From Gammaproteobacteria bacterium UBA7310 (GTDB taxonomy: Bacteria > Pseudomonadota > Gammaproteobacteria > Pseudomonadales > Ketobacteraceae), in contig DKQK01000005.1 in the NCBI GenBank assembly GCA_002471665.1, positions 61,918 to 85,917 of the forward strand: DNA of 24,000 nt. The letters are read 5' to 3'. The translations under genes and the position numbers were made by a program. The notes under the pieces are model-generated. The model was not told where the DNA came from, searched no databases, and was given only the letters and a program-made list of their open reading frames with translations. Below, piece by piece: positions 2,063 through 16,160 of the stretch. The first letter of the stretch is position 1. Every line of letters begins with the position of its first letter.

Positions 2063-3043
2063 ATGCCGATTCCAAGCAGCTTTGAAGGCAGATTGAAGTT
2101 ACCGGTAGTGGCCGCCCCCATGTTTTTGGTGTCCGGCCCCAGAATGTTGATTGAGAACTGTAAGAACGGCGTGGTCGGTACCCTGCCTGCGCTGAATCAG
2201 CGCAGCAGCGAGGGCTTTGAAGAATGGCTGCTGCAGATTGAGCGGGAACTTTCGGAGTTTGAACAACAAACCGGTAACAGGGCCGCGCCCTATGGCATTA
2301 ACCTGATTGTGCACAAGACCAACCCCAGGGTACAGGCGGATCTGGAAATCTGCGCAAAACACAAAGTGCCCCTGGTGATCACCTCTCTGGGCGCGGTGAA
2401 AGAACTGGTGGACACCGTGCACAGCTACGGCGGCGTGGTCTTCCATGACGTCACCAATCGCCGCCATGCGGAAAAAGCCGCTGAAGCCGGTGTCGATGGC
2501 TTGATTGCCGTGTGTGGTGGCGCCGGCGGCCACGCGGGTACCACCAATCCGTTTGCGCTGGTGCAGGAAATCCGCAGTTTTTTTGATAAAACCCTGTTGT
2601 TGGCAGGTTGTATTAACAGTGGTTCCGATGTGGCGGCCGCACTGCAGATGGGAGCGGATCTGGCCTATATGGGTACCCGCTTCATCAATACTGTGGAAAG
2701 TGAGGCGGTGCCTGAATACAAACAGATGATCAATGACTGCGGCAGCAAGGACATAGTACACACCCCCGCCGTGTCCGGTATTCCTGCCAGTTTTATGCGG
2801 CCCAGCATGGAAGCCAACGGCTACGCAATGGATAAGCTGGGGCAGCCCGGCGAGGTGGATTACGGCACCAAACTGAAACCCGTCAGCGACGAAGCCAAGG
2901 CCTGGAAAACTGTTTGGTCCGCCGGCCAGGGTTGTGCCGGGATCCATGATGTGGTGCCGGTGGCGGAATTGATCGGCCGCATGAGCGACGAATTCCGCAA
3001 CGCCATTCAGACCCAGGCCAAGGCACTGGAAATCTACCGATAA
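2063..3043 (+). CDS. Nitronate monooxygenase / FabK-like NAD(P)H-dependent flavin oxidoreductase (NMO family)
   Basis: 326 aa. Motifs LPVVAAPMFLVSGP, VCGGAGGHAG and AGCINSGSDVAAALQMGADLAYMGTRF (FMN TIM barrel of the 2-nitropropane dioxygenase family). SD AAGGTG lies 6 nt upstream of the ATG. Confidence 0.8.
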   Translation: MPIPSSFEGRLKLPVVAAPMFLVSGPRMLIENCKNGVVGTLPALNQRSSEGFEEWLLQIERELSEFEQQTGNRAAPYGINLIVHKTNPRVQADLEICAKHKVPLVITSLGAVKELVDTVHSYGGVVFHDVTNRRHAEKAAEAGVDGLIAVCGGAGGHAGTTNPFALVQEIRSFFDKTLLLAGCINSGSDVAAALQMGADLAYMGTRFINTVESEAVPEYKQMINDCGSKDIVHTPAVSGIPASFMRPSMEANGYAMDKLGQPGEVDYGTKLKPVSDEAKAWKTVWSAGQGCAGIHDVVPVAELIGRMSDEFRNAIQTQAKALEIYR

Positions 3044-3055
3044 TACACTGCTGTA

Positions 3056-3973
3056 TCAGGCGGCATCCGCCGCCTGTTGTGCCTGCATCTCGTCAATCAA
3101 CGTCATTTCGTTACGGAAACGTTCCAGCAGATCGCGGCGCTCATCGGTTTCCCAGGGGTGAAATCCGGGGCGGAAATACTGCAGTAAAAACGGTGCCAGC
3201 GCGCGCATGATGCCATCCTGTCCCCACAGCAACCGGCGTACCGCTGCCCGATGCTGCGCATCCCACAGGCCATCCTGCTGCAACAGATAACGCATTCGAT
3301 TGCGCAGTCGCACCAGCAGATCCAGGGTGACAAACACCATGGCATAGGCCCGTTTCCAGTAACCGCCACCGGCTTCCTGGTACAGGTCGTAGCATACCGC
3401 CTTGTGTTCCACCTCCTCCATGGCATGGTAAATCAGCAGTTCCCGGAAGGGTGAACCGGCCTTTTCAATCAAATCCGGACGATGGTAAATAAAGAGGTGC
3501 GCCAGGGAGGCAGTGAAGTGCTCAGAAGCCGCCGTCATGGCCAGGCGTGTCAATGGTGTCAGGTGCTTGCGGGACCACTTATTATCGCGCTTCAGTTTTT
3601 CATCGAACATCTGCATGGCGGGGTAGCCCATCTCGATCAGGGCCTGACTCCAACCGTCGTGCTCCCGCCCGTGCATGGCTTCCTGGCGGATGAACAATTG
3701 AATCTGCTCCAGTAATTCCGCAGGCAGGTTATCCTTTCCCACGGCATCACGCACGTCCCGCGCCGAATCCATGAAAAAGCGCTCCCCTTCCGGGAACATA
3801 GCCTGCAAGGCATTGAAAAAATGCGTTTTTACGGGATCATTGTCATGCCAGTAGCGTTGCTGGCGCATGGCACCGAGATAATCAAAGCGCACACTGCGGG
3901 CAATGATTTTCAATGCGGCCGGTGTGCGGGTGCGACGCCGGCCCTGTGCCTTACTAAACACGTTACCTAACAT
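3056..3973 (-). CDS. COG3687/PF10118-type 'predicted metal-dependent hydrolase'; carries a di-iron-carboxylate-like E..ExxH x2 pattern
   Basis: 305 aa. The family-typical N-terminal segment is HFFNALQAMFPEGERFF. Candidate metal ligands are E62/E64, E98-A-M-H101, E151(H152) and E187-V-E-H190. Confidence 0.6.
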   Translation of the reverse strand: MLGNVFSKAQGRRRTRTPAALKIIARSVRFDYLGAMRQQRYWHDNDPVKTHFFNALQAMFPEGERFFMDSARDVRDAVGKDNLPAELLEQIQLFIRQEAMHGREHDGWSQALIEMGYPAMQMFDEKLKRDNKWSRKHLTPLTRLAMTAASEHFTASLAHLFIYHRPDLIEKAGSPFRELLIYHAMEEVEHKAVCYDLYQEAGGGYWKRAYAMVFVTLDLLVRLRNRMRYLLQQDGLWDAQHRAAVRRLLWGQDGIMRALAPFLLQYFRPGFHPWETDERRDLLERFRNEMTLIDEMQAQQAADAA

Positions 3974-4070
3974 AGTTATGCTGCCTCTGTTTTAATCCAT
4001 TATTAAGACTAGTTCAGCAGCGCTCAAGACGTTAGGTGAATGGATGACGATGTACTGTGCCAAAGCGACA

Positions 4071-4100
4071 GCCCAGCACCCTGCAAGCAGCATGCTGGGC
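4071..4100 (-). terminator. Stem-loop downstream of the acyl-CoA synthetase gene (possible intrinsic terminator)
   Basis: On the minus strand: GCCCAGCA-tg-CTGC-tt-GCAG-gg-TGCTGGGC, followed by TGTCGCTTTG. The stem is strong but the U-tract is weak. Confidence 0.5.
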
Positions 4101-4109
4101 TGAGGGCAA

Positions 4110-5726
4110 CTACTGGGTATACACAGACTGATACTGGTCCCGCAGCTGACGCTTCAGTAACTTACCGGTGGGGGTGTGCGGCAATTCCTCAACAAACAAC
4201 ACTTCGTCGGGCATCCACCATTTCACGATTTTGTCCGCCAGGTATTCCAGCATGGCTTCCTTGGTCAGACTGGCGCCGGGGTTCAGTACCACCAGCAACA
4301 ACGGGCGTTCATCCCATTTCGGATGCGGTACACCCACCACCGCGCATTCAGCAACCGCGTCATGGCCGATGGCGATGTTCTCCACATCAATGGAACTGAT
4401 CCACTCGCCGCCGGATTTGATGACATCCTTGGCCCGGTCCACGATGTTCATGTAGCCCTGTGCATCCAGTGTGGCCACATCACCGGTATCAAACCAACCG
4501 TCCTGCCAGTCGGATTGATCATCGTGTTTATAGTAGCTGCTGGCCACCCAGGGGCCGCGCACCTGCAGGCGGCCAAAGGCTTTACCGTCGTGGGGCAGTT
4601 CCTGCCCGGCATCGTCTACAATTCGAATTTCAATACCGTAGATGGGGCGCCCCTGCTTGGTTTGCAGTTTATAGCGCTCCTCCTGCGACAATCCGGCCAT
4701 GTAGGTGTTCATGCTGTTAAGCGTACCCATGGGGGAAAGCTCGGTCATGCCCCAGGCATGAATAACAAAGGCATCGTGTTTTTCCTGAAACGCCCTGATC
4801 ATGGACATGGGCGCCGCCGAGCCGCCTATGACCACCTCTTCCACCGAGGCCAGCTTGCGGTTTTCCTGATCACAGTACTGCAGCAGCCCCAACCATACGG
4901 TGGGCACCCCCAGCAGCAATGAAACGTTCTCACTGTCGATCAGTTCATACAGGGAGGCACCATCCATACCGGCGCCGGGCAACACCAACCTGGCTCCACC
5001 GGCGGTGGCCGCATAGGGCACGCCCCAGGCATTCACATGGAACATGGGCACTACCGGTAAAACCGACGACCGATTGCAAACCCCCAACGCATCGTTGCTG
5101 ACGGAGGCCAACGCGTGAATCACCGTGGAACGGTGGCTGTACAGCACCCCTTTGGGATTGCCGGTGGTACCGGAGGTGTAACACAGGGTGGCGGCCAGGT
5201 TTTCATCAAAACTGGGCCACTCATACTCGGCGCTGGCGGCTTCCAGCAATGCCTCATAGCACAACAAGTCCAGCTTGGAATCCGGCATGCTGGCCTTATC
5301 CACCATCAGCACGATGTGTTTCAAATGCGGCAGCTGATCGCGTATGGCTTCAATAAGAGGCACGAATTGCAGATCCAGAAACAGCACTTCGTCCTCGGCA
5401 TGATTGAGAATGTAGACGATCTGCTCGGGGAACAGGCGCGGATTCACCGTATGCAGAATGGCGCCACTGCCGGACACCGCAAAATACAACTCATAGTGGC
5501 GGTGTGTATTCCAGGCCAGTGTGGCAACCCGGTCCTGCTGCTGAACGCCCAGCTGGGCCAGCACATTAGCCGCCTGCCGGGCACGCCTGCCGGCATCCGC
5601 ATAGGTGTAGCGAAAGATGCCTCCCTCCGGTTTACGGCTGACGATCTCGCAGTGTTTATGAACTTTTTCAGCGTGACGCAGAATAGACGAAATGGAGAGT
5701 TGGGTATCCATCATCAATCCGTGCAT
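4110..5726 (-). CDS. Long/medium-chain fatty acid--CoA ligase (AMP-binding superfamily)
   Basis: Motifs LCYTSGTTGNPKGVLYSHRS, GWFDTGDVA and DRAKDVIKSGGEWIS. I chose the start at ATG 5726 (MHGLMMDTQLSISS...) because GAGGAG lies 6 nt upstream. The ORF-track start at 5786 has no SD. Confidence 0.9.
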   Translation of the reverse strand: MHGLMMDTQLSISSILRHAEKVHKHCEIVSRKPEGGIFRYTYADAGRRARQAANVLAQLGVQQQDRVATLAWNTHRHYELYFAVSGSGAILHTVNPRLFPEQIVYILNHAEDEVLFLDLQFVPLIEAIRDQLPHLKHIVLMVDKASMPDSKLDLLCYEALLEAASAEYEWPSFDENLAATLCYTSGTTGNPKGVLYSHRSTVIHALASVSNDALGVCNRSSVLPVVPMFHVNAWGVPYAATAGGARLVLPGAGMDGASLYELIDSENVSLLLGVPTVWLGLLQYCDQENRKLASVEEVVIGGSAAPMSMIRAFQEKHDAFVIHAWGMTELSPMGTLNSMNTYMAGLSQEERYKLQTKQGRPIYGIEIRIVDDAGQELPHDGKAFGRLQVRGPWVASSYYKHDDQSDWQDGWFDTGDVATLDAQGYMNIVDRAKDVIKSGGEWISSIDVENIAIGHDAVAECAVVGVPHPKWDERPLLLVVLNPGASLTKEAMLEYLADKIVKWWMPDEVLFVEELPHTPTGKLLKRQLRDQYQSVYTQ

Positions 5727-5784
5727 GGTGTTCTCCTCGCGTTGGGGTTTGTATTCCGTTAATTTTTTATTATCTCTACACAAC

Positions 5785-5808
5785 AAAAAACCGGGCTATT
5801 CAGCCCGG
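5785..5808 (-). terminator. Rho-independent terminator of the BVMO-SDR operon
   Basis: The minus strand reads CCGGGCT-GAAT-AGCCCGG followed by TTTTTTG, 22 nt after the SDR stop codon. Confidence 0.8.
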
Positions 5809-5829: not shown

Positions 5830-6672
5830 TTAGCGACTGGCCATCTTGAACGAAGCGGTCACTATCCGCTGATATATCACCGGCAGTGTGCGCTGCATTA
5901 TGTCCAGTACCCGCGCATCCGGACCGATCAACGCCCGCCGCTTGTTGGCTTTCACTGCCCCCAGAATTACCTGGGCGGCTTTCTCGGAGGTGGTCAGGAA
6001 CAGTGCCTCAAATTGGTCACGCATCTTTTCCGCGCTGGCGCTTCCGGTGAGCTTTTCCACACTGTTGCTCATCCGCGCATTGCGGGCAATGTTGGTTTTG
6101 ATACCACCGGGGTGGACACAGGTACAGGACACCTTACCGCCTTCCAGATCCAGCTCCTGGCGCAGGGATTCGGTAAACCCACGCACCGCAAACTTAGACA
6201 TGTTATAACCGCTTTGTGTGGGTTGCGCAAACAGGCCGAATATACTGGAGATGTTAACGATGTGCCCTTCCTCACCGGCTTGCTTGATGTAGGGCAAAAA
6301 CGCTTTGGTGCCATACACCACGCCCCACATATTAATACCCACAATCCATTCGTAATCGGAATAATCCGTGTCTTCCACCGTACCACCAAGGGCGACACCC
6401 GCGTTGTTGTAGACCATGTTCACCTTGCCGTGATCGTGCACCACCTGGTCGGCCCAGGCATGCACCGCATCGCGATCCGCCACATTCACCTTGGCAGTGG
6501 TTACTTTAACACCCAATGCGGAGGCCTGCTTGGCGGTTTCTGCCAATCCTGCGTCGTCCACGTCGCTCAGGGCCAGATGACAATGCTGTTTGGCCAGTTC
6601 AAGGGCCAGAGCGCGACCTATTCCAGACGCCGCTCCGGTGATAGCGGCCACTTTGTTGTTGAATGATTTCAT
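5830..6672 (-). CDS. Short-chain dehydrogenase/reductase (SDR)
   Basis: 280 aa. Motifs ITGAASGIGRA (TGxxxGxG), NNAG and YNMSK (YxxxK). The start ATG overlaps the upstream BVMO stop codon (ATGA at 6669-6672). Confidence 0.9.
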   Translation of the reverse strand: MKSFNNKVAAITGAASGIGRALALELAKQHCHLALSDVDDAGLAETAKQASALGVKVTTAKVNVADRDAVHAWADQVVHDHGKVNMVYNNAGVALGGTVEDTDYSDYEWIVGINMWGVVYGTKAFLPYIKQAGEEGHIVNISSIFGLFAQPTQSGYNMSKFAVRGFTESLRQELDLEGGKVSCTCVHPGGIKTNIARNARMSNSVEKLTGSASAEKMRDQFEALFLTTSEKAAQVILGAVKANKRRALIGPDARVLDIMQRTLPVIYQRIVTASFKMASR

Positions 6673-8189
6673 GCGGATGCCCCTACTGTGTCTGGTGTTG
6701 ATGTGGTTTCTTCTGCGCCGTTGAACAGGTATGCGTCGGCATCAAAACGCCGGGTTTGCTGACGAAACTGCCAGGTAAAGCCGGGCCATAACGTCACGTT
6801 TTTTCCACTGACCGGATGCAGATACCAGCTCTGGCAACCGCCATTGTTCCACACCGATCCCTGCAGTTTGTTCTGGATACGATCGTTGTAGCGGGCTTGT
6901 GCCGTGGGCGCCACATCGATCTGCCGGATGCGTTTTTTCCCCATGAATTTCATCGCGCTCATTACATAATTGATTTGCGACTCGATCATGTACACCATGG
7001 AGTTGTGCCCCAATCCGGTGTTGGGGCCCATTAACATAAAGAAGTTCGGGAACCCGGCAATGGTGGTACCTTTGTACGCTTCCGGACCTTCGGGCCAGGT
7101 ATCCACCATATCCACGCCGCCACGGCCAAAAAACAGGCCTTTGGGAATGGGATCGGTGGCTCTGAAACCGGTGCCGTAGATGATGGCGTCCACTTTTCGT
7201 TCTTCGCCGTCCACGGTGATGACGCTGTTGGCGGTCACTTCCCGAATACCGGTGGTGATCACGTCCACGTTGGGCTGGTCCAGTGCCGGATAGTAGTTAT
7301 CCGACATCAGGATGCGCTTGCAGCCGATGGTGTAATCCGGGGTCACCTTTTTGCGCAACTCCGGATCACTGATCTGATTACGAATGTGGTTAAGAGCCCA
7401 GCGCTTGGCGATGGTCATTAAGCGCGGATTAATCAACATACCCACGACGCGGCTTTCCAGGGTCCAGTAGATTTTTTCCCGCAATAACTGCTGGGCTTTG
7501 GGAAAGCGTTTGAACAACGCTTTTTCGGCAAACTTCATGGCCCGGTCCGGCTTGCTGATGATCCAGGGTGGCGTGCGCTGATACAGATCCAGTTGCGCCG
7601 CTTCTTTCTGCACCTCGGGTACAAACTGAATAGCCGAGGCACCGGTGCCGATGACGGCAACCCGTTTGCCTTTCAGGTCATACTGATGATCCCAATCCTG
7701 GGAATGGAAGGCTTTGCCCTCAAACTTATCCAGGCCGGGAATGTTCGGGTAGGCCGGCACGGATAACCCACCCGCACCCGCCACCAGAATTTCGGCGCTG
7801 TACTGCTTACCCTGCTGGTCGGTGACCATCCACAATTGTTTGCCGTCATCCCAATGGGCGCCGGCAACCGCGTTATTGAGCTTCACATGGGGCATCACAT
7901 CATAATGATGGGCGCAGTGTTCCAGATATTTTTTGATTTCCGGCTGCGGCGCAAACATGCGGCTCCAGTTGGGGTTGGGGGCAAACGAAAAAGAATACAA
8001 ATGAGAAGGCACATCGCAGGCGCATCCCGGATAATGATTCACGCGCCAGGTGCCACCCACACCAGCCTCTTTTTCAAAAACAATGAAATCGTTCTCTCCC
8101 TCCTGCTTCAAACGAATGGCCATACCCAGGCCGGAAAAGCCGGTGCCGATGATCGCCACCTTATGATGTTCCACTGACTGCTTGCTCAT
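6669..8189 (-). CDS. Type I Baeyer-Villiger (flavin-containing, NADPH-dependent) monooxygenase
   Basis: FAD Rossmann motif VAIIGTGFSGLG and a second Rossmann motif VAVIGTGASAIQ. BVMO fingerprint FEGKAFHSQDWD (FxGxxxHxxxW[P/D]) and GGTWRVNHYPGCACDVPSHLYSFSF. I chose the start at ATG 8189 (MSKQSVEHHK..) with AGGA upstream. ATG 8231 has no SD. Confidence 0.85.
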   Translation of the reverse strand: MSKQSVEHHKVAIIGTGFSGLGMAIRLKQEGENDFIVFEKEAGVGGTWRVNHYPGCACDVPSHLYSFSFAPNPNWSRMFAPQPEIKKYLEHCAHHYDVMPHVKLNNAVAGAHWDDGKQLWMVTDQQGKQYSAEILVAGAGGLSVPAYPNIPGLDKFEGKAFHSQDWDHQYDLKGKRVAVIGTGASAIQFVPEVQKEAAQLDLYQRTPPWIISKPDRAMKFAEKALFKRFPKAQQLLREKIYWTLESRVVGMLINPRLMTIAKRWALNHIRNQISDPELRKKVTPDYTIGCKRILMSDNYYPALDQPNVDVITTGIREVTANSVITVDGEERKVDAIIYGTGFRATDPIPKGLFFGRGGVDMVDTWPEGPEAYKGTTIAGFPNFFMLMGPNTGLGHNSMVYMIESQINYVMSAMKFMGKKRIRQIDVAPTAQARYNDRIQNKLQGSVWNNGGCQSWYLHPVSGKNVTLWPGFTWQFRQQTRRFDADAYLFNGAEETTSTPDTVGASA

Positions 8190-8302
8190 GTTGTAGTCCT
8201 GATCATTGTTATGGTGTGTCGGTGGCCCCATTGGGCGGGCCCGCTGCTGCCAGCATGCGATCCGACATGTACTCCCCTGGGGAGTCCCGGTAATAAAATC
8301 TC

Positions 8303-8350: not shown

Positions 8351-8414
8351 TCTGGTCAAGAGCCGGTACAATTCATCACATTGATGTATACAATTGATTA
8401 AAAGTAGACCAAAG

Positions 8415-9113
8415 ATGAGTCTTTCCAAATCCGTTCTGGCCCAGGGCAAGCGCCTGCTGATGGAAGCGGCCCTCAAGTTGAACGCCAGCACCCGCAGCCT
8501 GAATGCCCTGAGCCTGCGGGAACTGGCCCGTGAAGCCGGCCTGAACCCCAACACGTTCTACCGGCATTTCAAGGATTTCGATGAACTGGGCATGGCCATC
8601 ATTGAAGAAATGACCAAGCAAATCCGCCAACCACTGCGGGATCTGCGGCGGCGCGCGGCGGAGTCGGTGGCACCGGCAGGCACCCAGTTGGAATCCTGGG
8701 AAGACAACCCCCGTCTCAACCTGGCGAAAGCAACCCAGGTAAACCAGGCCACGGTGAAACTGTTCTTCGACTATGTGGCCGCCAACCCCAACGCCTTTAT
8801 TCTGGGTATCCGCGAGCTGCACGGGGCCTCCCCCGTACTGCGCAAGGCCCTGCGTCAGGTAATGGAAGATTTTGCCCAGGATATGGCGGATGATATTGAA
8901 GAGTTGCGGCTGATGCCGGCGCTGGAGCGCAGTCACCTGTATGACATCTCGGAAACCATCAGCCGGGAGATGTTTCAGTTGTCCATGGACTACATTGAAC
9001 AACCTGAACGCCGTGAACAGATTTGCCTGAAAGCAGAGAAAATGATTACCGCCCTGATCATGGGCAGCGCCGTACTGCATGGCCACGGCCCCACTCTGAT
9101 GCAAGCGTTGTAG
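8415..9113 (+). CDS. TetR-family transcriptional regulator, FabR-like
   Basis: The HTH region LSLRELAREAGLNPNTFYRHFKDFDELGMAIIEE closely parallels E. coli FabR ([29 protein letters not shown]) as recalled. NPNAFILGIRELHGAS resembles FabR NPNAFRLLLRERSGTS. The start is uncertain: ATG 8415 versus TTG 8394, neither with a clear SD. Confidence 0.8.
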   Translation: MSLSKSVLAQGKRLLMEAALKLNASTRSLNALSLRELAREAGLNPNTFYRHFKDFDELGMAIIEEMTKQIRQPLRDLRRRAAESVAPAGTQLESWEDNPRLNLAKATQVNQATVKLFFDYVAANPNAFILGIRELHGASPVLRKALRQVMEDFAQDMADDIEELRLMPALERSHLYDISETISREMFQLSMDYIEQPERREQICLKAEKMITALIMGSAVLHGHGPTLMQAL

Positions 9114-9154
9114 CCGGCATCAGTAAAACCAAGGCACCGCACAAAGGAAGCGCT

Positions 9155-10312
9155 ATGTCAGCCACCATTATCTTACCCAGAATTCTGCAAGTGGGGAAAA
9201 ACGCCACCGAAGCCGTGGCCACCATTGTCAGGCAGCTGGGCTGCGAGCGCCCGCTGTTGATCACCGACAACATGATGGTGGAACTGGGTTACATCACCCG
9301 CCTGCAAGCGCTACTGGCAGAAGCCGGTATCGCCAGTGACGTGTTTGCCGATACGGTACCGGAACCCACGGTTGCCTCCATTGAGGCCGGGGTTCGCGTG
9401 ACCAACGCCGGCCGCTACGACTGCCTTATCGCCCTCGGTGGCGGCAGCCCCATAGACAGCGCCAAGGCCATTGCCATACTGGCGCGCCACGGCGGCGCCA
9501 TGGCCGATTACAAGTTTCCCCGCAACGTGGCCGAAAGCGGGTTACCGGTGATCGCCATTCCCACCACCGCCGGCACCGGCTCGGAAATGACCCGTTTCAC
9601 CATCATCACCGATGACCAGGCAGATGAAAAAATGTTGTGTGCGGGCATGGGCTTTCTCCCGGTGGCAGCACTGGTGGATTACACCCTGTCCATGAGCGCG
9701 CCACCAAGAATCACGGCCGACACCGGCATCGATGCCCTGACCCACGCCATTGAAGCCTATGTCAGCCGCAAGGCAAATACCTACAGTGACAGCCAGGCAC
9801 TGGCGGCCATGGGCCTGCTGGCCCCCAATCTGCGCCGGGTCTTTCACGATGGCGGGGACGAATCCGCCCGCGAGGCCATGATGATGGGAGCGACCCTGGC
9901 GGGTGTTGCCTTCTCCGCCGCCTCCGTAGCCCTGGTGCACGGTATGAGCCGCCCTATTGGTGCTCACTTTCATGTTCCCCATGGGCTCTCCAATGCCATG
10001 CTGCTGCCCAGCGTTACCGAGTTCTCCATTGACTGCGCCGCCCGGCGCTACGCTGACTGCGCAGTGGCCATGGGCATTGCCGCCGCCGGTGATAATGTAC
10101 TGATCGCCAACAAGAAGCTGCTACAGGAACTGAAGGCCCTGAACCAGGATTTGCAGGTGCCCACCCCCCAAGAGTATGGCATTGATAAAACAGAGTTTTT
10201 TAACAAAGTTCCGGTGATGGCCGAGCAGGCGATGGCTTCCGGATCACCGGCTAACAACCCCCGCGTTCCCAGCCTTGAAGAGATGGCATCCCTCTACCGC
10301 GCACTCTGGTAA
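9155..10312 (+). CDS. Iron-containing (group III) alcohol dehydrogenase
   Basis: 385 aa from ATG 9155, with SD AAAGGAAG just upstream. Motifs GGGSPIDSAKAIA, DALTHAIEAY and HGMSRPIGAHFHVPHG. The ORF-track extension back to 9023 overlaps the TetR gene and is not supported. Confidence 0.85.
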   Translation: MSATIILPRILQVGKNATEAVATIVRQLGCERPLLITDNMMVELGYITRLQALLAEAGIASDVFADTVPEPTVASIEAGVRVTNAGRYDCLIALGGGSPIDSAKAIAILARHGGAMADYKFPRNVAESGLPVIAIPTTAGTGSEMTRFTIITDDQADEKMLCAGMGFLPVAALVDYTLSMSAPPRITADTGIDALTHAIEAYVSRKANTYSDSQALAAMGLLAPNLRRVFHDGGDESAREAMMMGATLAGVAFSAASVALVHGMSRPIGAHFHVPHGLSNAMLLPSVTEFSIDCAARRYADCAVAMGIAAAGDNVLIANKKLLQELKALNQDLQVPTPQEYGIDKTEFFNKVPVMAEQAMASGSPANNPRVPSLEEMASLYRALW

Positions 10313-10339
10313 CAGAAAATTCACTTTACTTCGGGGGCC

Positions 10340-10382
10340 GGTATGAATACTATTCGAACATCATTCGAATAGTATTCATACC
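10340..10382. promoter_or_regulatory. Perfect 43-bp palindrome (19-bp arms, 5-nt centre), candidate operator / RNA hairpin in front of the efflux TetR gene
   Basis: GGTATGAATACTATTCGAA-CATCA-TTCGAATAGTATTCATACC, verified base by base. It ends 2 nt before ATG 10385 and starts 27 nt after the ADH stop codon. Confidence 0.6.
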
Positions 10383-10384
10383 CT

Positions 10385-11110
10385 ATGCCAGCCCCGAAAT
10401 TCTCCTGCCAGGAGCAGGAAAACCGCATACTGCAAGCCGCCGCCGCCTGCATTGAAGCCAGCTCCCTGCTGGATTTCACCATGTCGGGCATTTCCAAGGC
10501 TGCGGGGCTGTCCATGGGCTCCATCTACAAACACATCCAAAGCAAGGAAGATGTGCTGGTGGCACTGGGTTACCACTACCAGGTGCATTTCATGGCCGTG
10601 GTGAAACAGATCTTCGCCCTGCCTTTGCCGGCGGTGGCCCGTATCCCGGCAGTGCAACTGATGGACCACAGCCTGGTTTCCCCATTCGGTTTCGCCCCCC
10701 AGCTGGAGACCCTGCTGGGCAACGAAGCCATCCTGAAGCGGGCCTCGGCGGGCTGGCTGGAAAAGTTCATCACCATTGATATCGCCGTGGAAGACCTGTT
10801 CCGGGAGGAAGTCCTGCGCGCCTGTCGGGACGGAGAACTGCAGGTGGATCAAGCACAGCAGGAGGCCATCGCCCATGAGCTGGTCACCAGCATGTGGTCC
10901 ATCTGCGTTGGCCACACCCAGGTGCAGATGCAACGCAATGCCCGTCACCTGCTGGATCAGGAGGTACAACCCTCCGGCCGGCTGGAAAGCGATTCTGTCA
11001 TTGTGCGCAGCATGACACGCATGATGAACACCTACCCATGGACAACACCATTGACGGAAACATTGCTGGCCTCCACCTGCCGGCTGCTTGAGGAACACGG
11101 CCTGCGTTAG
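10385..11110 (+). CDS. TetR-family transcriptional regulator (efflux operon)
   Basis: 241 aa. The HTH is FTMSGISKAAGLSMGSIYKHIQSKEDVL. It lies 31 bp upstream of the MFP gene on the same strand. Confidence 0.85.
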   Translation: MPAPKFSCQEQENRILQAAAACIEASSLLDFTMSGISKAAGLSMGSIYKHIQSKEDVLVALGYHYQVHFMAVVKQIFALPLPAVARIPAVQLMDHSLVSPFGFAPQLETLLGNEAILKRASAGWLEKFITIDIAVEDLFREEVLRACRDGELQVDQAQQEAIAHELVTSMWSICVGHTQVQMQRNARHLLDQEVQPSGRLESDSVIVRSMTRMMNTYPWTTPLTETLLASTCRLLEEHGLR

Positions 11111-11141
11111 GCAGGTGCACCATAACACAGGGACCAACACC

Positions 11142-12317
11142 ATGAGTTTACGAAAATGGGGCATTACCGCTTTAAGCTGCGTACTGATCTTTGCCGCACT
11201 GGCCGCGTTTAAAGTCCTGGAAATCCGGGCCGCCATCGCCTTTGGGGAATCTTTTCCTGAACACTCGGAATCGGTTGAGCTGGCTGTGGTGGCCACCACC
11301 CAATACACCCCCGCCATTCGTGTCATCGGCGAAATGGTGGCACCACAACGGCTGGATCTGCGCAATGAGCTGGCGGGCGAAATTACCCGGGTCGGTTTCG
11401 AATCCGGCGCCAGCGTACGCCAGGGTCAGGTGCTCCTGCAACTGGACACGGCGGTAGAAGAAGCCAACCTGCAGGCGGCCCAGGCCCGGCTGGAGCTGGC
11501 GCAATCGGTGTACGAACGCTCCCAGGGCCTGTTTCAATCCAAAGCCACCAGCAAGGATCAACTGGATCGCGCCAAAGCGGACCTGAGCACCGCCCGCGCT
11601 GAACGGGAAGCTTTAAAGCGCACCATCGAAAAGAAAACCCTGCGTGCGCCCTTTGCTGGCAAAGCGGGCCTGCACACCTTTGAAGTGGGCCAGTTTCTGA
11701 TGGACAACACCTTCATCACCACGCTCATCAGCCAGCAGGATTTTATCTGGGTGGACTTCAAGGTACCGCAATTCTATCGCCCCCTGGCGGACAACACCGA
11801 AGTCACCGTGACCACCATCGGTGAGGCCAACAACCAACATCAGGGGCAGGCGGTGGTGGTGGCGGAAAACACCATCATCGAAAGCGCCAACCGCAGCCGT
11901 CAGTATCGCGCCAGATTGCCCAACCCCCGCGGCCAGTTCAGCGCCAATACCATGGTCAATGTGCAAGTACCGGTGGCCGACACCGAATCCGTACTGCAGG
12001 TACCGGCACTGGCCATTCAGCAGGACCCCCTTGGGCAGTTCGTCTATGTGCTGCTGGAAGACGACGCCAACCAGGGCTACCGGGCGAGCCGGCGCCAGGT
12101 CAAAATCAAACACCTGGGCGCCAAACAGGCACTCATTGAAAGCGGCCTGCAGGCCGGAGACAAAGTGGCCGCCGCCGGAGCGTTTAAACTGCACGAAGGT
12201 TTGTTGGTGTTTGCCCGCGAGCGGCCCGGCCAGAAACCATCTGCGCCGATGTCCGAGGCACTGCCGGAGGTAGCCACCGACACCGCATCACGGCGGCAGG
12301 ACGAGGGAAATCTGTAA
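11142..12317 (+). CDS. RND efflux periplasmic adaptor (membrane fusion protein)
   Basis: N-terminal membrane anchor MSLRKWGITALSCVLIFAALAAF. Coiled-coil hairpin LQLDTAVEEANLQAAQARLELAQSVYERSQGLFQSKATSKDQLDRAKADL and the motif LRAPFAGKAG. I chose ATG 11142 (AGGGA upstream) rather than 11088, which overlaps the TetR gene. Confidence 0.85.
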   Translation: MSLRKWGITALSCVLIFAALAAFKVLEIRAAIAFGESFPEHSESVELAVVATTQYTPAIRVIGEMVAPQRLDLRNELAGEITRVGFESGASVRQGQVLLQLDTAVEEANLQAAQARLELAQSVYERSQGLFQSKATSKDQLDRAKADLSTARAEREALKRTIEKKTLRAPFAGKAGLHTFEVGQFLMDNTFITTLISQQDFIWVDFKVPQFYRPLADNTEVTVTTIGEANNQHQGQAVVVAENTIIESANRSRQYRARLPNPRGQFSANTMVNVQVPVADTESVLQVPALAIQQDPLGQFVYVLLEDDANQGYRASRRQVKIKHLGAKQALIESGLQAGDKVAAAGAFKLHEGLLVFARERPGQKPSAPMSEALPEVATDTASRRQDEGNL

Positions 12318-15300
12318 TGGATATTTTCGTACAACGTCCGCTGCTGGCGATCGTCATCTCGGTGGTGCTCCTGTTGGCGGGGTTGGCCGCCGCCAGCAAG
12401 ATTCCGGTGCTGCAGTTTCCCCAGATTGAAAGCGCGTCCCTGGTGATCACCACCACCTATCCGGGCTCATCCGCCGAGGTGGTACAGGGCTTTATCACCG
12501 ACCCCATCGAGCAGGCCGCCATGACCATCCCCGGTGTGGATTATGTGGACAGCACCACTACTGCCGGCCTGAGCACCGTCACCGCCTGGCTGGAACTGAA
12601 CGAAGACAGCACCCGTGCCCTGGCGGAACTTTCCACCCGCCTGGCACAATTGCGTTACGAATTGCCCGAGGGTGCCGAAGACCCCGCCGTGGAGGTGGTG
12701 CGCGCCGACCGCCCGGCGGCACTTTTTTATCTGGATGTGCACGGCGAGGCCTGGACCCGCTCCGAACTAACCGATTACCTGGAGCGGCAGGTTAACCCGT
12801 TGTTCGCAGCCATCAACGGTGTCCAGCGGGTGGGCCTGGAAGGTGGCCGCTCCCCGGCCATGCGCGTGTGGATAGACCCGGATCGACTGGCCGCCCTGAA
12901 CCTGGGTGCCGATGACGTTATGAACGCCATCCGCGCCAACAACGTCATTGCCACCATAGGTAAAACCGAAAACGCGGCCCAGCAGTTCAACCTGCTGAGT
13001 AACGCCACCCTGCAAACGGTCTCCGACTTTGAGCAACTGATCATCTCCAACGTCAACAACGGCGTGATCCGGCTGGGGGATATTGCCCGGGTGGAAAAAG
13101 GCGAAACCCGCGGCACCATCAAGGCCCGCTACAATCAGGACACCACCGTCTACATTTCCATCTGGCCCCTGCCCGGCGCCAACGAAATAGCCATCGGCGA
13201 CCAAGTGTACGAGCGCCTGGCCAGCATTAATCAATCCCTGCCCAGAGGGTTGTCCATCAACACCGGCTACGACGGCACCATCTACATGCGGCAATCCCTC
13301 AAAGAAATCTTCACCACCCTGTTTGAAACCATATTGCTGGTGGGTCTGGTGGTGCTGTTGCTGATGGGATCGTTCCGCACGGCGCTGGTGCCCCTGGTGA
13401 CCATTCCCATCTCCATTCTGGGCAGTATTGCCATCATCTATGCCATGGGCTTCGCCCTGAACCTGCTGACGATCCTGGCAGTGGTGCTCTCGGTGGGTCT
13501 GGTGGTGGATGACGCCATTGTGGTGGTGGAAAATGTAGCGCGCCATCTGCGCGAAGGCCGCACCCGGGTGGAAGCGGCCCTGGTCAGCTCCCGCGAATTA
13601 CTGTCCCCCATCATCGCCATGACCTTCACTCTGGCCGCCGTCTACACCCCCATCGGTTTTGTGTCCGGTTTCACCGGCAGCCTGTTCAAGGAATTTGCCT
13701 TTACCCTGGCCATCGCCGTCATTATTTCCGGGGTGGTGGCGATCACGCTCTCCCCCATTATGAGCGCCTGGGTCTGTGCGTACAACGGCCGCGAAAGCGC
13801 CATGACGCGACGGGTCAACGCAGGCTTTGAACGGCTGCGACAACGCTATCAGGCGCTGCTGATGAAGAGCTTTGGCTGGCGCAATCAGATCCTGTTTTCT
13901 GCGTTGTTTGTTTCTCTGCTGGTGGTACCGTTCTATCTGTTTTCCGGTAAGGAACTGGCACCCATCGAAGATCAGAACAGCATTAATATCATCATCGAAT
14001 CACCGCCCCAGGCTTCCCTGGCCTATACCGACGATTACATGAATGATGTCATTGACCTGATACAAAACAACGTGCCGGGGCTGGATATGGTGTGGCAAAT
14101 CATCTCGCCCAATGGTGGCTTCGGCGGCATCGAGCTGGTGGACTTCGATCAGCGCGAACAGTCGGTACAGGAGCTGCTGCCGTCCGTATATGGGATGCTC
14201 TCCGCGATCACCGGGGTCAAGGTGTTTCCGATTCTGTTCCCCAGCCTGCCCACGGCCGGCCAGTTTGATGTGGAGATGGTGGTACAGTCTCCGGATGATT
14301 ACCCGCAAATGGAAACCTACGCCCGCCAGCTGATCGCCGCCGCCTATGAAAGCGGGCAGTTCATGTTTGTGGATACCGACCTGACGGTAAACCTGCCCCA
14401 AAGCCGGCTGCGCTTCGCCCACGATCGCATCGCGGACCTGGGCATGGACATCGATGATGTGAGCCGGCAACTGGCTTCGCTTCTGGCCGAGATGGACGCC
14501 AACCGGTTTAATGCCCAGGGCAAAGCCTATCGTGTTATTCCCATGGTGGAGCAGCTTGCCCGCGATACACCCGACACGGTTCTGGATCTGTTCATCCGCA
14601 CACCTGAGAGCGAATTGGTACCATTACGCTCACTGGTGGAAATGGAATCCGTCACCGGTCCCCGGGCCCTGGGCACCTTCAATCAACAACGGGCGTTCCG
14701 CATCTACGGTGGCCTGCTGCCGGGCACCACCAATGGTCAGGCACTGAGCACGCTGGAACAGGCCGCCGCCGACATTCTGCCCACCAACTACACGGTGGAT
14801 TACGCCGGTATTTCCCGCCAGCTGCGTAAAGAAGGTAACAGCATGCTGTCGGTTTTGGTGGTGGCCATACTGGTGGTCTATCTGGCACTGGCGATTCAGT
14901 TCAATAATTTTCGGCTGCCCTTGGTGGTACTCATGGGATCAGTCCCCCTGGCGCTCTCCGGTGCCATGCTGTTCAGCTTTCTGAGTTTTACCACCGTCAA
15001 CATCTATGCGCAGATCGGTTTCATTACCCTGGTAGGCTTGATTGCCAAGAACGGTATCCTGATCACGGAATTTGCTCACGAACAACAACGGCAGGGAGCC
15101 ACAAAATCAGCCGCCATCAGCGCTGCGGCCGCATTGCGCTTACGTCCGGTGCTGATGACCACCGCCGCCACCGTACTGGGACATTTTCCACTGGTGCTGG
15201 TCACCGGGGCCGGCGCCGAGGCACGCAACAGTATCGGCATCATTCTGGTGGCGGGTATGGCCATCGGCACCCTGTTCACCTTATTCATTTTGCCTTCGGT

Positions 15301-15412
15301 GTATTTATGGCTGGCACGGGAAACCGATCAGGAATTTACCCCGGCAAACAGCTCTGCAATGGATGGCACCAACCAGGCTCCGGCGGGTAATCCGGCTTCA
15401 TCACCGGCCTGA
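12317..15412 (+). CDS. RND efflux permease (AcrB/MexB-type inner-membrane transporter)
   Basis: 1031 aa with the 12-TM RND layout and conserved segments such as VLSVGLVVDDAIVVVENV and GLIAKNGILITEFA. The start overlaps the MFP stop codon (TAATG). Confidence 0.9.
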   Translation: MDIFVQRPLLAIVISVVLLLAGLAAASKIPVLQFPQIESASLVITTTYPGSSAEVVQGFITDPIEQAAMTIPGVDYVDSTTTAGLSTVTAWLELNEDSTRALAELSTRLAQLRYELPEGAEDPAVEVVRADRPAALFYLDVHGEAWTRSELTDYLERQVNPLFAAINGVQRVGLEGGRSPAMRVWIDPDRLAALNLGADDVMNAIRANNVIATIGKTENAAQQFNLLSNATLQTVSDFEQLIISNVNNGVIRLGDIARVEKGETRGTIKARYNQDTTVYISIWPLPGANEIAIGDQVYERLASINQSLPRGLSINTGYDGTIYMRQSLKEIFTTLFETILLVGLVVLLLMGSFRTALVPLVTIPISILGSIAIIYAMGFALNLLTILAVVLSVGLVVDDAIVVVENVARHLREGRTRVEAALVSSRELLSPIIAMTFTLAAVYTPIGFVSGFTGSLFKEFAFTLAIAVIISGVVAITLSPIMSAWVCAYNGRESAMTRRVNAGFERLRQRYQALLMKSFGWRNQILFSALFVSLLVVPFYLFSGKELAPIEDQNSINIIIESPPQASLAYTDDYMNDVIDLIQNNVPGLDMVWQIISPNGGFGGIELVDFDQREQSVQELLPSVYGMLSAITGVKVFPILFPSLPTAGQFDVEMVVQSPDDYPQMETYARQLIAAAYESGQFMFVDTDLTVNLPQSRLRFAHDRIADLGMDIDDVSRQLASLLAEMDANRFNAQGKAYRVIPMVEQLARDTPDTVLDLFIRTPESELVPLRSLVEMESVTGPRALGTFNQQRAFRIYGGLLPGTTNGQALSTLEQAAADILPTNYTVDYAGISRQLRKEGNSMLSVLVVAILVVYLALAIQFNNFRLPLVVLMGSVPLALSGAMLFSFLSFTTVNIYAQIGFITLVGLIAKNGILITEFAHEQQRQGATKSAAISAAAALRLRPVLMTTAATVLGHFPLVLVTGAGAEARNSIGIILVAGMAIGTLFTLFILPSVYLWLARETDQEFTPANSSAMDGTNQAPAGNPASSPA

Positions 15413-16089
15413 TATTTGCCGGTCTGCACCAGACAACCCTGCAGACCGGCATCGACAGCACCAATCACATCACTGACCAGATCATCCCCCACCATCAGGC
15501 AGGCGCTGGCAGGCACTCCGGTGGACGCCACCACCTGCTGGAAAAAGGCAGCACTGGGCTTACCCATGATGACCGCCTCCACGTCCGCGGCCCATTCCAC
15601 CAAACGGATAAATCCTCCGGCATCCAGCTTCAGACCTTCGTCATCCTTGAAATACTTATTCATACCGATACCAATCAACGGTGCCCCGCTTTTACACAAC
15701 CGAAACGCCGCATTGAGATTGTCGTAATTCAGATCCTGCCGCGCATCACCCAGCAGCACGCAGTTCGGCCTGGTTTGCTGCAGGTCGTCGAATTCCTTTT
15801 TCAGATTGTCGTGCAACAGGCAGAACGGCCGCAATCCCTGTTGCTGCAGATAGGCTTTCGCCGCCATCGGCGCGGTAAACAATTCATCAGCAGCCACATC
15901 GATGCCCATCGCTTTCAGATCGGTGAGCAGGGCGGAAGATGAACGAGTGGCTGTATTGGTGACAAACCGCAGTATCAGATTTTGTGCCCGGGCCTGCCCA
16001 ATGGTGTCGGTTGCACCGGCAATCAATTGACTGCCGTCATAAATCACGCCGCTGAGATCGAGTAATAATGCTTTTCGGTCTGAAGCCAT
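15328..16089 (-). CDS. HAD-superfamily subfamily IIA hydrolase, LHPP-like (TIGR01458-type)
   Basis: 253 aa from ATG 16089, with SD GGAGG upstream. Motif I LLLDLSGVIYDG (DxS instead of DxD, as in LHPP DISGVLY), FVTNT, and C-terminal MVGDDLVSDV. The last 85 bp overlap the RND gene on the opposite strand. Confidence 0.7.
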   Translation of the reverse strand: MASDRKALLLDLSGVIYDGSQLIAGATDTIGQARAQNLILRFVTNTATRSSSALLTDLKAMGIDVAADELFTAPMAAKAYLQQQGLRPFCLLHDNLKKEFDDLQQTRPNCVLLGDARQDLNYDNLNAAFRLCKSGAPLIGIGMNKYFKDDEGLKLDAGGFIRLVEWAADVEAVIMGKPSAAFFQQVVASTGVPASACLMVGDDLVSDVIGAVDAGLQGCLVQTGKYQAGDEAGLPAGAWLVPSIAELFAGVNS

Positions 16090-16160
16090 GTTCACCCCTC
16101 CTGCAGTGCATCCATGCCCCATAGCTTAACACGGCCCCGCCACGGCTCATCAAAGCAAGC

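Follow-up and report, generated by a model that had tools for sequence, protein, structure and literature searches.

A PF10118 "metal-dependent hydrolase" gene beside a Baeyer-Villiger monooxygenase operon in Ketobacteraceae encodes a candidate ferritin-like di-metal oxidase

The DNA analysed here (the window) comprises 24,000 nucleotides of Gammaproteobacteria bacterium UBA7310 (Ketobacteraceae; contig DKQK01000005.1). The gene under study, a PF10118 (Metal_hydrol / COG3687) ORF of 305 aa, lies at 3056..3973 on the minus strand. Directly upstream on the same strand is an acyl-CoA ligase gene (AMP-binding; 4110..5786; Pfam AMP-binding 2.5e-75), followed by a short-chain dehydrogenase/reductase (SDR; 5830..6672; Pfam adh_short 1.3e-47) and a type I Baeyer-Villiger monooxygenase (BVMO; 6669..8231; Pfam FMO-like), whose sequence contains the two BVMO fingerprints, FEGKAFHSQDWD (residue 170) and GGTWRVNHYPGCACD (residue 59). 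The ligase scored just above two NCBIfam cutoffs, those of a long-chain-fatty-acid--CoA ligase subfamily (776 bits, cutoff 766) and of 3-(methylthio)propionyl-CoA ligase (823.4 bits, cutoff 822). A TetR-family regulator (8394..9113, plus strand; Pfam TetR_N) is divergent from the BVMO operon and has a partial FabR-like match (108.8 bits, cutoff 151). On the other side, an NMO/FabK-like FMN oxidoreductase (2063..3043, plus strand; Pfam NMO 3.4e-26) is convergent with the PF10118 gene. ORF 10376-11365 (minus strand) was considered as a hidden esterase and rejected: it has no family match, is of low complexity and overlaps an HlyD ORF on the opposite strand.

A spacer of 136 nt separates the ligase from the PF10118 start. 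Its minus-strand fold (3974-4110) has a free energy of -47.2 kcal/mol (z=-2.0), and a stable RNA hairpin directly 3' of the ligase stop (4069..4102, minus strand) is common to the predicted MFE and centroid folds. Since the hairpin has no U-tract, it is not a canonical terminator, and a terminator scan of the spacer found no canonical terminator either. A sigma-70-like promoter match, TTGAGC-17-AATAAT, is located at 3999..4027 (minus strand), 26 nt upstream of the PF10118 start (9/12 positions, a consensus match only). This suggests that the PF10118 gene may have its own promoter.

The same order of genes, a divergent TetR gene and BVMO-SDR-acyl-CoA ligase-PF10118, was found in the window and in K. 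alkanivorans. The divergent TetR arrangement recurs at loci L086, L092 and L070, and the NMO/FabK-like oxidoreductase adjoins PF10118 convergently in L086 and L087. In L087, where the relative is 73% identical, PF10118 is parted by two unrelated genes from the SDR and ligase genes, and the neighbourhoods of relatives at 49-68% identity differ from that of the window. Linkage of PF10118 to the BVMO operon is loose, given the spacer with its hairpin and promoter-like site, the interruption in L087 and these differing neighbourhoods. The idea of a tight, conserved operon joining PF10118 to the BVMO was rejected, since only close relatives in Ketobacter keep the synteny and L087 breaks it.

Paralogous clusters combine similar functions in other orders. 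L092 reads BVMO-Abhydrolase_3-SDR-PF10118 with its TetR gene divergent; its PF10118 protein is 31% and its BVMO 49% identical to those of the window. In Pseudomonas (L070), PF10118 is followed by TetR and then by BVMO-SDR, with an Abhydrolase_3 gene further on. A Moraxellaceae locus (L009) contains P450-GMC oxidoreductase-PF10118-BtrH_N and two PaaI genes, beside AraC-esterase-BVMO-SDR, the esterase being of the Abhydrolase_1 type. Acinetobacter plasmids carry AraC-ferredoxin-P450-reductase-(IS)-PF10118. Of about 77 genome loci, 25 had a divergent AraC regulator immediately beside PF10118; these loci are from Pseudomonas, Marinobacter, Alcanivorax, Limnobacter, Fontimonas and others. A ferredoxin or reductase gene was not consistently adjacent among the loci examined.

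The 305-aa protein matches Pfam PF10118 over its full length (E=3.9e-76, 256.4 bits, cutoff 33.2), residues 25-277 corresponding to positions 2-247 of the 247 in the HMM. The family name was evaluated by motif scans of the window protein and two paralogues, in which HExxH, HxHxDH and GxSxG were all absent; the first two had already been noted as missing. Neither a signature motif nor a fold of metal-dependent hydrolases or serine esterases was found, and nothing in these analyses supports calling the protein a "predicted metal-dependent hydrolase". Literature searches returned no paper on PF10118, COG3687, UCP07580 or IPR016516, no characterised member and neither biochemical nor genetic data on a member. 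Searches for "metal-dependent hydrolase" together with CYP153, BtrH, PaaI or alkB likewise found no PF10118 study. A Rhodococcus BCP1 "metal-dependent hydrolase" near prmABCD was set aside, as no link to PF10118 was established. In Acinetobacter venetianus RAG-1, the adjacent "metal-dependent hydrolase" ORFs 1533 and 1534 were upregulated 143-fold and 28-fold on dodecane compared with dodecanol (PMC5074533); by annotation name only, these ORFs are possibly related to PF10118.

Candidate ligands were located in the translation, the codon of residue i being placed at 3973-3(i-1). By this numbering E62 is encoded at 3790-3788 and H190 at 3406-3404, so the span 3404-3790 singled out by the first-pass annotation runs exactly from E62 to H190. 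All seven residues listed there (E62, E64, E98, H101, E151, E187 and H190) are present. There are exactly two ExxH, at 98 and 187, while the longer pattern E-(30-40)-ExxH can be read from 62, 64 and 151. By our own arithmetic, about 0.8 ExxH are expected by chance in 305 aa with 20 Glu and 12 His, and the count in one sequence is therefore not significant. What makes the motif significant is its conservation across the family.

Conservation was determined in 143 sequences, each representing a 50%-identity cluster, that are ~28-55% identical to the window protein. E64, E98, H101 and E151 are each kept in 142/143 and E187 and H190 each in 143/143 representatives; the candidate ligands are also invariant in alignment A2 (mean column identity 32%). 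The first-pass annotation had named a lack of such conservation as a point against its reading, and the opposite was found. Its two E-(34 to 36)-ExxH units hold when counted from E64 and E151. The start at E62 does not, as this residue is conserved in just 27% of representatives (D, A and others occur there), which leaves E64 as the first-helix candidate ligand. H183 is kept in 143/143, extending the second motif to H183xxxE187xxH190. Further invariant or near-invariant residues beyond the original list are Q97 (143/143), H105 (141/143), H152 (141/143), E186 (143/143), E189 (138/143) and H272. Five of these (H105, H152, E186, E189 and H272) are unexplained by a canonical di-iron site.

In the DNA, all on the minus strand, the E64 codon occupies 3782..3784, E98-A-M-H101 3671..3682, E151-H152 3518..3523 and H183-A-M-E186-E187-V-E189-H190 3404..3427. 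The first ExxH sits within the family motif QEAxHxxEH, which includes Q97 and H105. A C-terminal family motif, F271-H272-P273-W274 (3152..3163, minus strand), is invariant among close homologues (alignment A1), and its F, H and P are conserved at 94%, 95% and 99%. The pattern [WY]H[ASG]xEExEHK, applied to genome sequences, yielded 599 confirmed relatives from 600 genome stretches.

Structures were predicted with AlphaFold for the window protein (pLDDT 93.5, pTM 0.90) and for the paralogue P0332 (pLDDT 92.9), which is 40% identical to it over 260 residues. Both models are all-helical. In the window model the two E...ExxH units are distributed over four separate long core helices: E64 on helix 60-78, E98/H101 on 85-114, E151 on 140-164 and H183/E187/H190 on 176-200. 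The P0332 model likewise has the four motifs on four long helices. Judged from the helix boundaries of the window model, the ligand heights would match within each antiparallel pair, 64 with ~99 and 151 with ~189. We infer that the seven candidate ligands converge on one dinuclear site.

Models were compared with the PDB using Foldseek, as the first-pass annotation had proposed. Among the best 50 matches of the window model, 45 were ferritin-like di-metal carboxylate proteins and none was a hydrolase chain. R2lox ranked first (prob 0.99-1.00, E 0.067, TM 0.40-0.47, ~270 aligned columns), and RNR R2, ADO, ACP desaturase and AurF were also included. The best matches of the P0332 model were again almost all of this superfamily, namely R2, R2lox, CmlI, sMMO hydroxylase (7tc7_D, prob 0.99, rmsd 4.4 Å over 197 columns) and ADO; one hydrolase chain, the peptidase DPP11 (5jwi_A), appeared among its best 50 at rank 26 with prob 0.12. 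Both models thus returned a ferritin-like, R2-type helical bundle, at the level of weak fold matches (E 0.067-1, TM 0.40-0.48, rmsd 7-10 Å apart from the 4.4 Å for sMMO hydroxylase and P0332). Phmmer and profile hmmsearch against all PDB sequences (E ≤ 10), performed with the window protein, alignment A2 and the member P0242, returned only noise and detected no solved structure. Alignment of A2 with the single E. coli NrdB sequence (hhalign) gave one spurious match of 33 columns.

Weak family-level similarities pointed the same way. Pfam AurF (PF11583) was weakly matched by 19/93 PF10118 members (best E 5.5e-6), COQ7 by 6/93 and Rubrerythrin by 6/93. In P0242 the AurF-, COQ7- and Rubrerythrin-type matches run collinearly from the first to the second ExxH. 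This member, the one for which a score is given, reached 16.7 bits against Pfam AurF (gathering cut-off 29.6). The window protein had no match to Pfam AurF at E ≤ 10 and remained below the gathering score. Among characterised families, AurF/CmlI alone shows recurrent sequence-profile similarity to PF10118. AurF has the ligands E101, E136, H139, E196, H223, E227 and H230 (PMC11775713), in the same order E-(35)-ExxH ... E ... HxxxExxH as E64, E98, H101, E151, H183, E187 and H190 of the window protein. H183 would take the place of the third His of AurF (H223), four residues ahead of the second ExxH. The candidate site resembles that of AurF, with seven ligands (4 Glu and 3 His). Of the six-ligand di-iron pattern originally proposed, all six residues (E64, E98, H101, E151, E187 and H190) were retained, but the number was not, since H183 is equally invariant. 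Structurally, CmlI (5hyh) matched the P0332 model with prob 0.95 and TM 0.44, and AurF (3chi_A) the window model with prob 0.57. The contexts differ: PF10118 genes are found in lipid and alkane catabolism, whereas AurF/CmlI belong to arylamine natural-product biosynthesis.

R2lox (M. tuberculosis Rv0233 and Geobacillus kaustophilus), the best structural match of the window model and among the best of the P0332 model, is similar in size (~285-300 aa) and has the same two E...ExxH units on four helices. Its Mn/Fe site carries a bound long-chain fatty acid and a Tyr-Val ether crosslink. The fatty-acid binding makes the likeness fit the lipid context of PF10118. Unlike R2lox, PF10118 has the extra invariant H183 as well as H105, H152, E186 and E189, and no sequence homology of the window protein to R2lox or R2 was detected (phmmer and profile hmmsearch, PDB, E ≤ 10). 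Stearoyl-ACP desaturase, cyanobacterial aldehyde-deformylating oxygenase (ADO) and soluble methane monooxygenase (sMMO) hydroxylase, ferritin-like di-iron enzymes for fatty chains or CoA/ACP thioesters, share with the di-metal reading of PF10118 the ligand architecture and hydrophobic substrates. Their matches (2uw1, 2j2f, 4kvs and 4kvq for the window model; 7tc7_D, 4rc7 and 4v0j for the P0332 model) are weaker than those of R2lox and R2, and they have no sequence similarity to PF10118. Multicomponent monooxygenases depend on dedicated reductase and effector subunits; such subunits are not encoded at the PF10118 locus.

Three independent lines, ligand conservation, the PDB matches of two models and the weak AurF, COQ7 and Rubrerythrin profiles, thus support the ferritin-type di-metal carboxylate protein which the first-pass annotation had suggested. 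On balance we favour, as the probable function, an uncharacterised O2-activating Fe/Fe or Mn/Fe oxidase of the ferritin-like R2 type that acts on an alkane- or lipid-derived substrate and is not an esterase. The product would be a soluble, all-helical protein of ~35 kDa, in which four long helices would hold a dinuclear metal-carboxylate site formed by E64, E98/H101, E151 and H183/E187/H190. By analogy with the structurally similar proteins found, this site would bind Fe/Fe or Mn/Fe. Reduction is proposed to come from a general cellular reductant because no dedicated partner is encoded nearby. The reduced site would then react with O2, and a hydrophobic substrate held in the helical bundle would be oxidised. 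Metal identity, O2 activation and substrate class are those we infer for the PF10118 protein. The neighbours in these oil-degrading bacteria (BVMO, SDR, acyl-CoA ligase, esterases, P450 alkane-hydroxylase genes, PaaI thioesterases, acyl-CoA dehydrogenases and AraC-type regulators) point to an alkane- or lipid-derived substrate, whether alkyl chain, fatty acid or acyl thioester.

A more specific proposal, to which we assign a small chance, is that the soluble metal-dependent C-H hydroxylases still missing from subterminal oxidation of medium- and long-chain alkanes are PF10118 proteins. The PF10118 enzyme would hydroxylate the alkane to a secondary alcohol, which the co-located SDR would convert to a ketone. 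The AlmA-type BVMO would turn the ketone into an ester, to be processed by esterase and acyl-CoA ligase. This role is suggested because, in L092 and the window, initial hydroxylation is the sole step without an enzyme and PF10118 the sole gene without a role. AlmA has been reported to be a BVMO, and the alkane hydroxylase activity of LadA not to be reproducible (PMC12449030); an alkane hydroxylase role of PF10118, if true, bears on the question reopened by these reports.

Instead of an oxidase acting on a pathway substrate, the protein could be a ferritin-like protective or accessory protein that is co-expressed with uncoupling-prone oxygenases: a rubrerythrin- or Mn-catalase-like peroxide scavenger, a ferroxidase, or an R2lox-like lipid binder without turnover. 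Even taken together, we regard these variants as unlikely. They would account for the six members with weak Rubrerythrin matches, for the lack of a reductase partner encoded nearby and for the company of different oxygenase types (BVMO and P450). To our knowledge, R2lox, the best structural neighbour, also has no known physiological reaction. However, a protein of ~300 aa with extensive helices round the core has the size of R2 and AurF, not of rubrerythrin or ferritin, and a Pfam scan found no rubredoxin domain. The divergent AraC gene at about a third of the loci and the place between catabolic enzymes also fit a pathway enzyme better.

A di-metal hydrolase, either an esterase cleaving the BVMO-made ester or a thioesterase, is quite unlikely, although the gene content of the window would suit it. 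The window operon has BVMO, SDR and acyl-CoA ligase but no alpha/beta-hydrolase esterase, and the L092 esterase finds no match in the window. PF10118 is the sole gene nearby without an assigned role, the directly upstream ligase would activate the released acid, and the database name reads "metal-dependent hydrolase". Against this stand the missing hydrolase motifs and the structural neighbours, which are nearly all redox di-metal proteins; we know of no ferritin-like hydrolase. Moreover, a dedicated esterase co-occurs with PF10118 in L092 and L070 (Abhydrolase_3) and in L009 (Abhydrolase_1), for which reason PF10118 was rejected as the BVMO-route esterase. These paralogous BVMO clusters weaken the fallback of the first-pass annotation, in which a di-metal esterase completes the BVMO route.

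A heme-oxygenase-like di-iron oxidase (HDO; UndA/CADD/SznF type) would use E98/H105 (i, i+7), E151 and H183xxxE187xxH190. The HDO pattern consists of E...H(i+7), E and HxxxDxxH; invariant H105 and the helix with HxxxExxH are reminiscent of it, and E151 and H183 are spaced by 32 residues. The heme-oxygenase-like fold was represented among the structural matches by TenA/THI-4 (4lqx_B, prob 0.13, window model; 4lqx_A/B, prob 0.77-0.87, P0332 model), yet these ranked below the R2-type ferritin-like proteins, which were the best matches of both models. An HDO site would leave the invariant E64 and H101 without a function. The recurrent Pfam matches are AurF, COQ7 and Rubrerythrin, and the 25 families matched most often include no heme-oxygenase-like one. 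We consider an HDO highly improbable. That the motif is a product of chance or purely structural and the protein binds no metal is hardly credible: two ExxH in one sequence are near the chance expectation, but seven Glu/His are kept almost without exception at this low column identity, and they lie on four separate long helices in a protein that structurally resembles, for the most part, di-metal proteins bearing carboxylate/His ligands on core helices.

The PF10118-type family is large, comprising 2,619 clusters at 50% identity (E ≤ 0.001). Plasmids carry it too: Acinetobacter accounts for 56 of the 81 plasmid records with a member. Its hosts are chiefly bacteria that degrade hydrocarbons and lipids (Ketobacter, Marinobacter, Alcanivorax, Oleispira, Acinetobacter, Pseudomonas and sphingomonads), and everywhere it is annotated as hydrolase or hypothetical. 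Should a ferritin-fold hydrolase prove true instead, it would itself be unusual. An O2-activating di-metal enzyme, as favoured here, would change pathway reconstructions for alkane and ketone degradation and would add a soluble, engineerable candidate to the few enzymes that may functionalise long alkyl chains.

The 305-aa product of the minus-strand ORF at 3056-3973 matched Pfam PF10118 ("Metal_hydrol, predicted metal-dependent hydrolase") over its full length (E=3.9e-76), and no NCBIfam model matched it. The codon of residue i lies at 3973-3(i-1), and the span 3404-3790 is exactly E62 to H190. The nearest relatives, all labelled "metal-dependent hydrolase", were from gammaproteobacterium HdN1 and from Ketobacter, among them Ketobacter alkanivorans (84% identity), which marks the window as DNA of a Ketobacter-like alkane degrader. 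When 1.84 billion cluster representatives were searched exhaustively with HMMER, 2,619 PF10118 relatives were found. A literature search found no paper on the function of PF10118 or COG3687. HExxH, HxHxDH and GxSxG motifs were searched for and are absent from the window protein, in agreement with the first-pass annotation, which had seen no typical hydrolase motif. "Hydrolase" in the family name found no support in these analyses and appears wrong.

All residues named earlier as candidate metal ligands (E62/E64, E98xxH101, E151, E187xxH190) are present in the window protein. It contains exactly two ExxH motifs, at E98 and E187; about 0.8 would be expected by chance from 20 Glu and 12 His among 305 residues. 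In one sequence alone the Glu/His pattern would be no more than chance; across the family it is clearly more, because these residues are kept in nearly all aligned relatives. Conservation in a family alignment had been set beforehand as a test. When 142 full-length relatives (about 28-55% identical) were aligned with the query, E64, E98, H101 and E151 were each found in 142/143 sequences and E187 and H190 in 143/143, so that all named residues except E62 are near-invariant. They were likewise conserved in A2, an alignment of 93 family members with 32% mean column identity. E62 was conserved in only 27% and is therefore placed outside the site. Q97, H105, H152, H183, E186, E189 and H272 were also invariant or nearly so. 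H183xxxE187xxH190 is the same extra-histidine motif as in AurF, whose ligands are E101, E136, H139 and H223 on Fe1 and E196, E227 and H230 on Fe2 (PMC11775713). Given the conservation counts and the AurF-like H183, the candidate site is best described as a 4-Glu/3-His pattern, E64 / E98xxH101 / E151 / H183xxxE187xxH190. The original ligand list thus loses E62 and gains H183 and other residues; several conserved His/Glu are left over, unexplained by the pattern.

All 93 A2 members were scanned singly against Pfam at a permissive threshold. AurF (PF11583) was matched by 19 of them (best E 5.5e-6), COQ7 and Rubrerythrin by 6 each; no further family recurred, every other one being matched by at most 2 members. 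In family member P0242 the three matches were collinear, from the first ExxH (E94) through the second (E182xxH185). These hits show weak homology to the AurF, COQ7 and rubrerythrin profiles. Since the window protein itself stayed below all three models and neither phmmer nor a profile HMM detected any PDB sequence, PF10118 is, at sequence level, a separate, remote family without a solved structure.

An AlphaFold2 model of the window protein, built from 29 homologues, was helical throughout (mean pLDDT 93.5, pTM 0.90). The motifs fell on four long helices, with E64 on helix 60-78, E98/H101 on helix 85-114, E151 on helix 140-164 and H183/E187/H190 on helix 176-200. From the helix boundaries, two antiparallel hairpins are predicted in which residue 64 would face about 99 and residue 151 about 189, opposed positions such as a ferritin-type site would need. 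Foldseek gave no strong match to this model in the PDB (best E 0.067); ferritin-like di-metal carboxylate proteins accounted for 45 of the best 50 matches. R2-like ligand-binding oxidase (R2lox) was matched with prob 0.99-1.00 and TM 0.40-0.47 over about 270 aligned columns. RNR R2 (several classes), aldehyde-deformylating oxygenase (ADO), acyl-ACP desaturase and AurF were also among the matches. As a replicate, a different alignment was used to model paralogue P0332, which shares 40% identity with the window protein across 260 residues (model pLDDT 92.9). It again matched R2, R2lox and ADO, together with CmlI (prob 0.95) and methane monooxygenase hydroxylase (prob 0.99, rmsd 4.4 A over 197 columns). 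Both models point to the R2-type ferritin-like fold class, in line with the ferritin-type reading made at first pass.

On the minus strand the gene order is type I Baeyer-Villiger monooxygenase (BVMO; 6669-8231, both BVMO fingerprints found), short-chain dehydrogenase/reductase (SDR; 5830-6672), acyl-CoA ligase (4110-5786) and PF10118. A TetR regulator (8394-9113) is divergent from the BVMO-side genes, and an NMO/FabK-like FMN oxidoreductase (2063-3043, plus strand) is convergent with PF10118. The arrangement in K. alkanivorans is identical. The link of PF10118 to the BVMO operon is not tight, because the 136-nt spacer before it holds a stable hairpin (4069-4102(-), perfect 11-bp stem directly 3' of the ligase stop) and a sigma-70-like promoter match (3999-4027(-), between hairpin and PF10118 start), a 73%-identical relative is split from SDR and ligase by two unrelated genes, and relatives at 49-68% identity have other neighbours (glyoxalase, AraC regulators, WS/DGAT wax-ester synthase, MaoC dehydratase, acyl-CoA dehydrogenase). 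PF10118 may form its own transcription unit. The NMO/FabK-like oxidoreductase is convergent with PF10118 also in K. alkanivorans (L086 9975-10955) and the 73%-identical relative (L087 8162-9139), even where BVMO-side synteny is interrupted, and may be its functional partner or supply it with electrons.

The acyl-CoA ligase scored 823.4 against the NCBIfam cut-off of 822 for 3-(methylthio)propionyl-CoA ligase, just at threshold, and 776 against 766 for a long-chain-fatty-acid-CoA ligase subfamily; with both cut-offs passed, its substrate assignment is ambiguous. Judging by the 538-aa orthologue of K. alkanivorans, the true start probably lies about 20 codons downstream of the TTG given for this ORF. 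In the syntenic K. alkanivorans locus (L086) Fe-ADH directly adjoins a PAS-GGDEF gene; in the window some 8 kb of additional genes are present (10313-18487), namely an RND efflux pair (HlyD-type 11088-12317, AcrB 12317-15412) and genes for a HAD hydrolase (15328-16122), for a Tsx-like channel (16161-16949) and for an amidohydrolase (16825-18381). This looks like an insertion in the window or a deletion in the relative. ORF 10376-11365(-) is probably not a real gene, because its translation is of low complexity, lacks a family match and overlaps the HlyD ORF. At 9023-9148(+), the start of the Fe-ADH ORF (9023) overlaps the TetR gene; given this overlap and a Pfam match only from residue 53, its real start is probably later.

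Gene context was surveyed at 80 genome loci with PF10118 relatives, about 77 of them analysable. The commonest neighbour was an AraC-family regulator (Arabinose_bd + HTH_18; 27/~77 loci, immediate neighbour in 25 and divergent in 23), in genera including Pseudomonas, Marinobacter, Alcanivorax, Oceanobacter, Limnobacter, Fontimonas and Nevskiaceae. SDRs were near PF10118 in 18 loci. Diverged paralogues again lie beside BVMO modules: BVMO-Abhydrolase_3-SDR-PF10118 with divergent TetR on a Ketobacter-like contig (L092; PF10118 31% and BVMO 49% identical to those of the window), PF10118 / TetR / BVMO-SDR ... Abhydrolase_3 in Pseudomonas, and BVMO and SDR within 8 kb in a Burkholderiales locus. A second paralogue subfamily shows the order PF10118-BtrH_N/DUF4872-PaaI-PaaI(-acyl-CoA ligase-acyl-CoA dehydrogenases). 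This module, with two PaaI/4HBT thioesterase genes, is shared by Alcanivorax, Moraxellaceae, Acinetobacter plasmids and Ketobacter (L007 7998-10823, L009 7854-10835, L089 7989-11478, L092 9001-11817); ligase and dehydrogenases follow 3' in places only. In the Moraxellaceae genome it is preceded by cytochrome P450 and GMC alcohol oxidoreductase, opposite AraC-esterase-BVMO-SDR. PF10118 was found on 56 Acinetobacter plasmid records; the one inspected carries AraC-ferredoxin-P450-reductase, a set typical of P450 alkane-hydroxylase systems, and then PF10118. Because of these BVMO, SDR, P450, PaaI, ligase and acyl-CoA dehydrogenase neighbours, the family is placed in alkane and lipid oxidation islands.

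Multiple copies occur: L092 has two PF10118 genes, each in an oxidation operon of its own (2412-3344, 9001-9870; identity to the window protein 31% and 40%), and tandem pairs are present in Oceanobacter and Pseudomonas loci (L008 7914-9611, L034 7995-9798). A 44%-identical homologue (L003 8001-8837) lies on a contig attributed to a Promethearchaeota (Asgard) MAG, which bacterial contamination of the bin or horizontal transfer could explain. On Marinobacter adhaerens HP15 plasmid pHP-187 (L090 1-8771), PF10118 adjoins an outer-membrane transport protein, an OmpA-family protein and two large Ig-like-domain proteins. An Ig-like domain is predicted in AlmR, the only reported AlmA repressor (PMC11784139).

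The window protein is very probably a ferritin-like di-metal protein; conservation, both models and the AurF/COQ7/Rubrerythrin profiles support the first-pass reading for fold and cofactor type. As a whole, the evidence is best explained, with some confidence, by a putative O2-activating di-metal oxidase acting on a hydrophobic substrate. The 4-Glu/3-His residues would make up a dinuclear site, Fe/Fe or Mn/Fe, which a general ferredoxin or flavoprotein would reduce. The reduced site would bind O2, and the substrate would be hydroxylated, desaturated or oxidised by two electrons in a related way. That the SDR/BVMO/esterase route receives its secondary alcohol from this protein is doubtful. A protective or lipid-binding role of a ferritin-like protein is unlikely, and a di-metal hydrolase slightly more so. 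A di-metal esterase completing the BVMO route, offered earlier as an alternative, is disfavoured, since a dedicated alpha/beta-hydrolase esterase lies beside PF10118 in three cases. An HO-like di-iron oxidase fold is very improbable, and the lack of any metal site scarcely credible.

In its proposed working the putative oxidase would most resemble R2lox and AurF/CmlI, and it belongs to neither. Sequence homology to R2lox is lacking; the protein falls below the PF11583 threshold, and its biological setting differs from the arylamine-oxygenase context of AurF/CmlI. In a transcriptome of Acinetobacter venetianus RAG-1, two neighbouring hypothetical genes annotated as "metal-dependent hydrolase" were 143-fold and 28-fold up on dodecane vs dodecanol; A. 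baumannii, P. aeruginosa and A. borkumensis have homologues (PMC5074533). They are possibly PF10118 genes. Tandem PF10118 pairs occur (L008, L034), and genome loci and plasmid records place PF10118 in the genera with homologues of the two. AlmA has been reclassified as a BVMO and alkane hydroxylation by LadA was not reproduced, which reopens the issue of what soluble enzymes carry out the initial oxidation of long alkanes (PMC12449030). PF10118 is rated as a new, uncharacterised family among ferritin-like di-metal oxidases. Should Pfam/InterPro list it under the ferritin clan already, the fold assignment would not be new; the functional context is new regardless.
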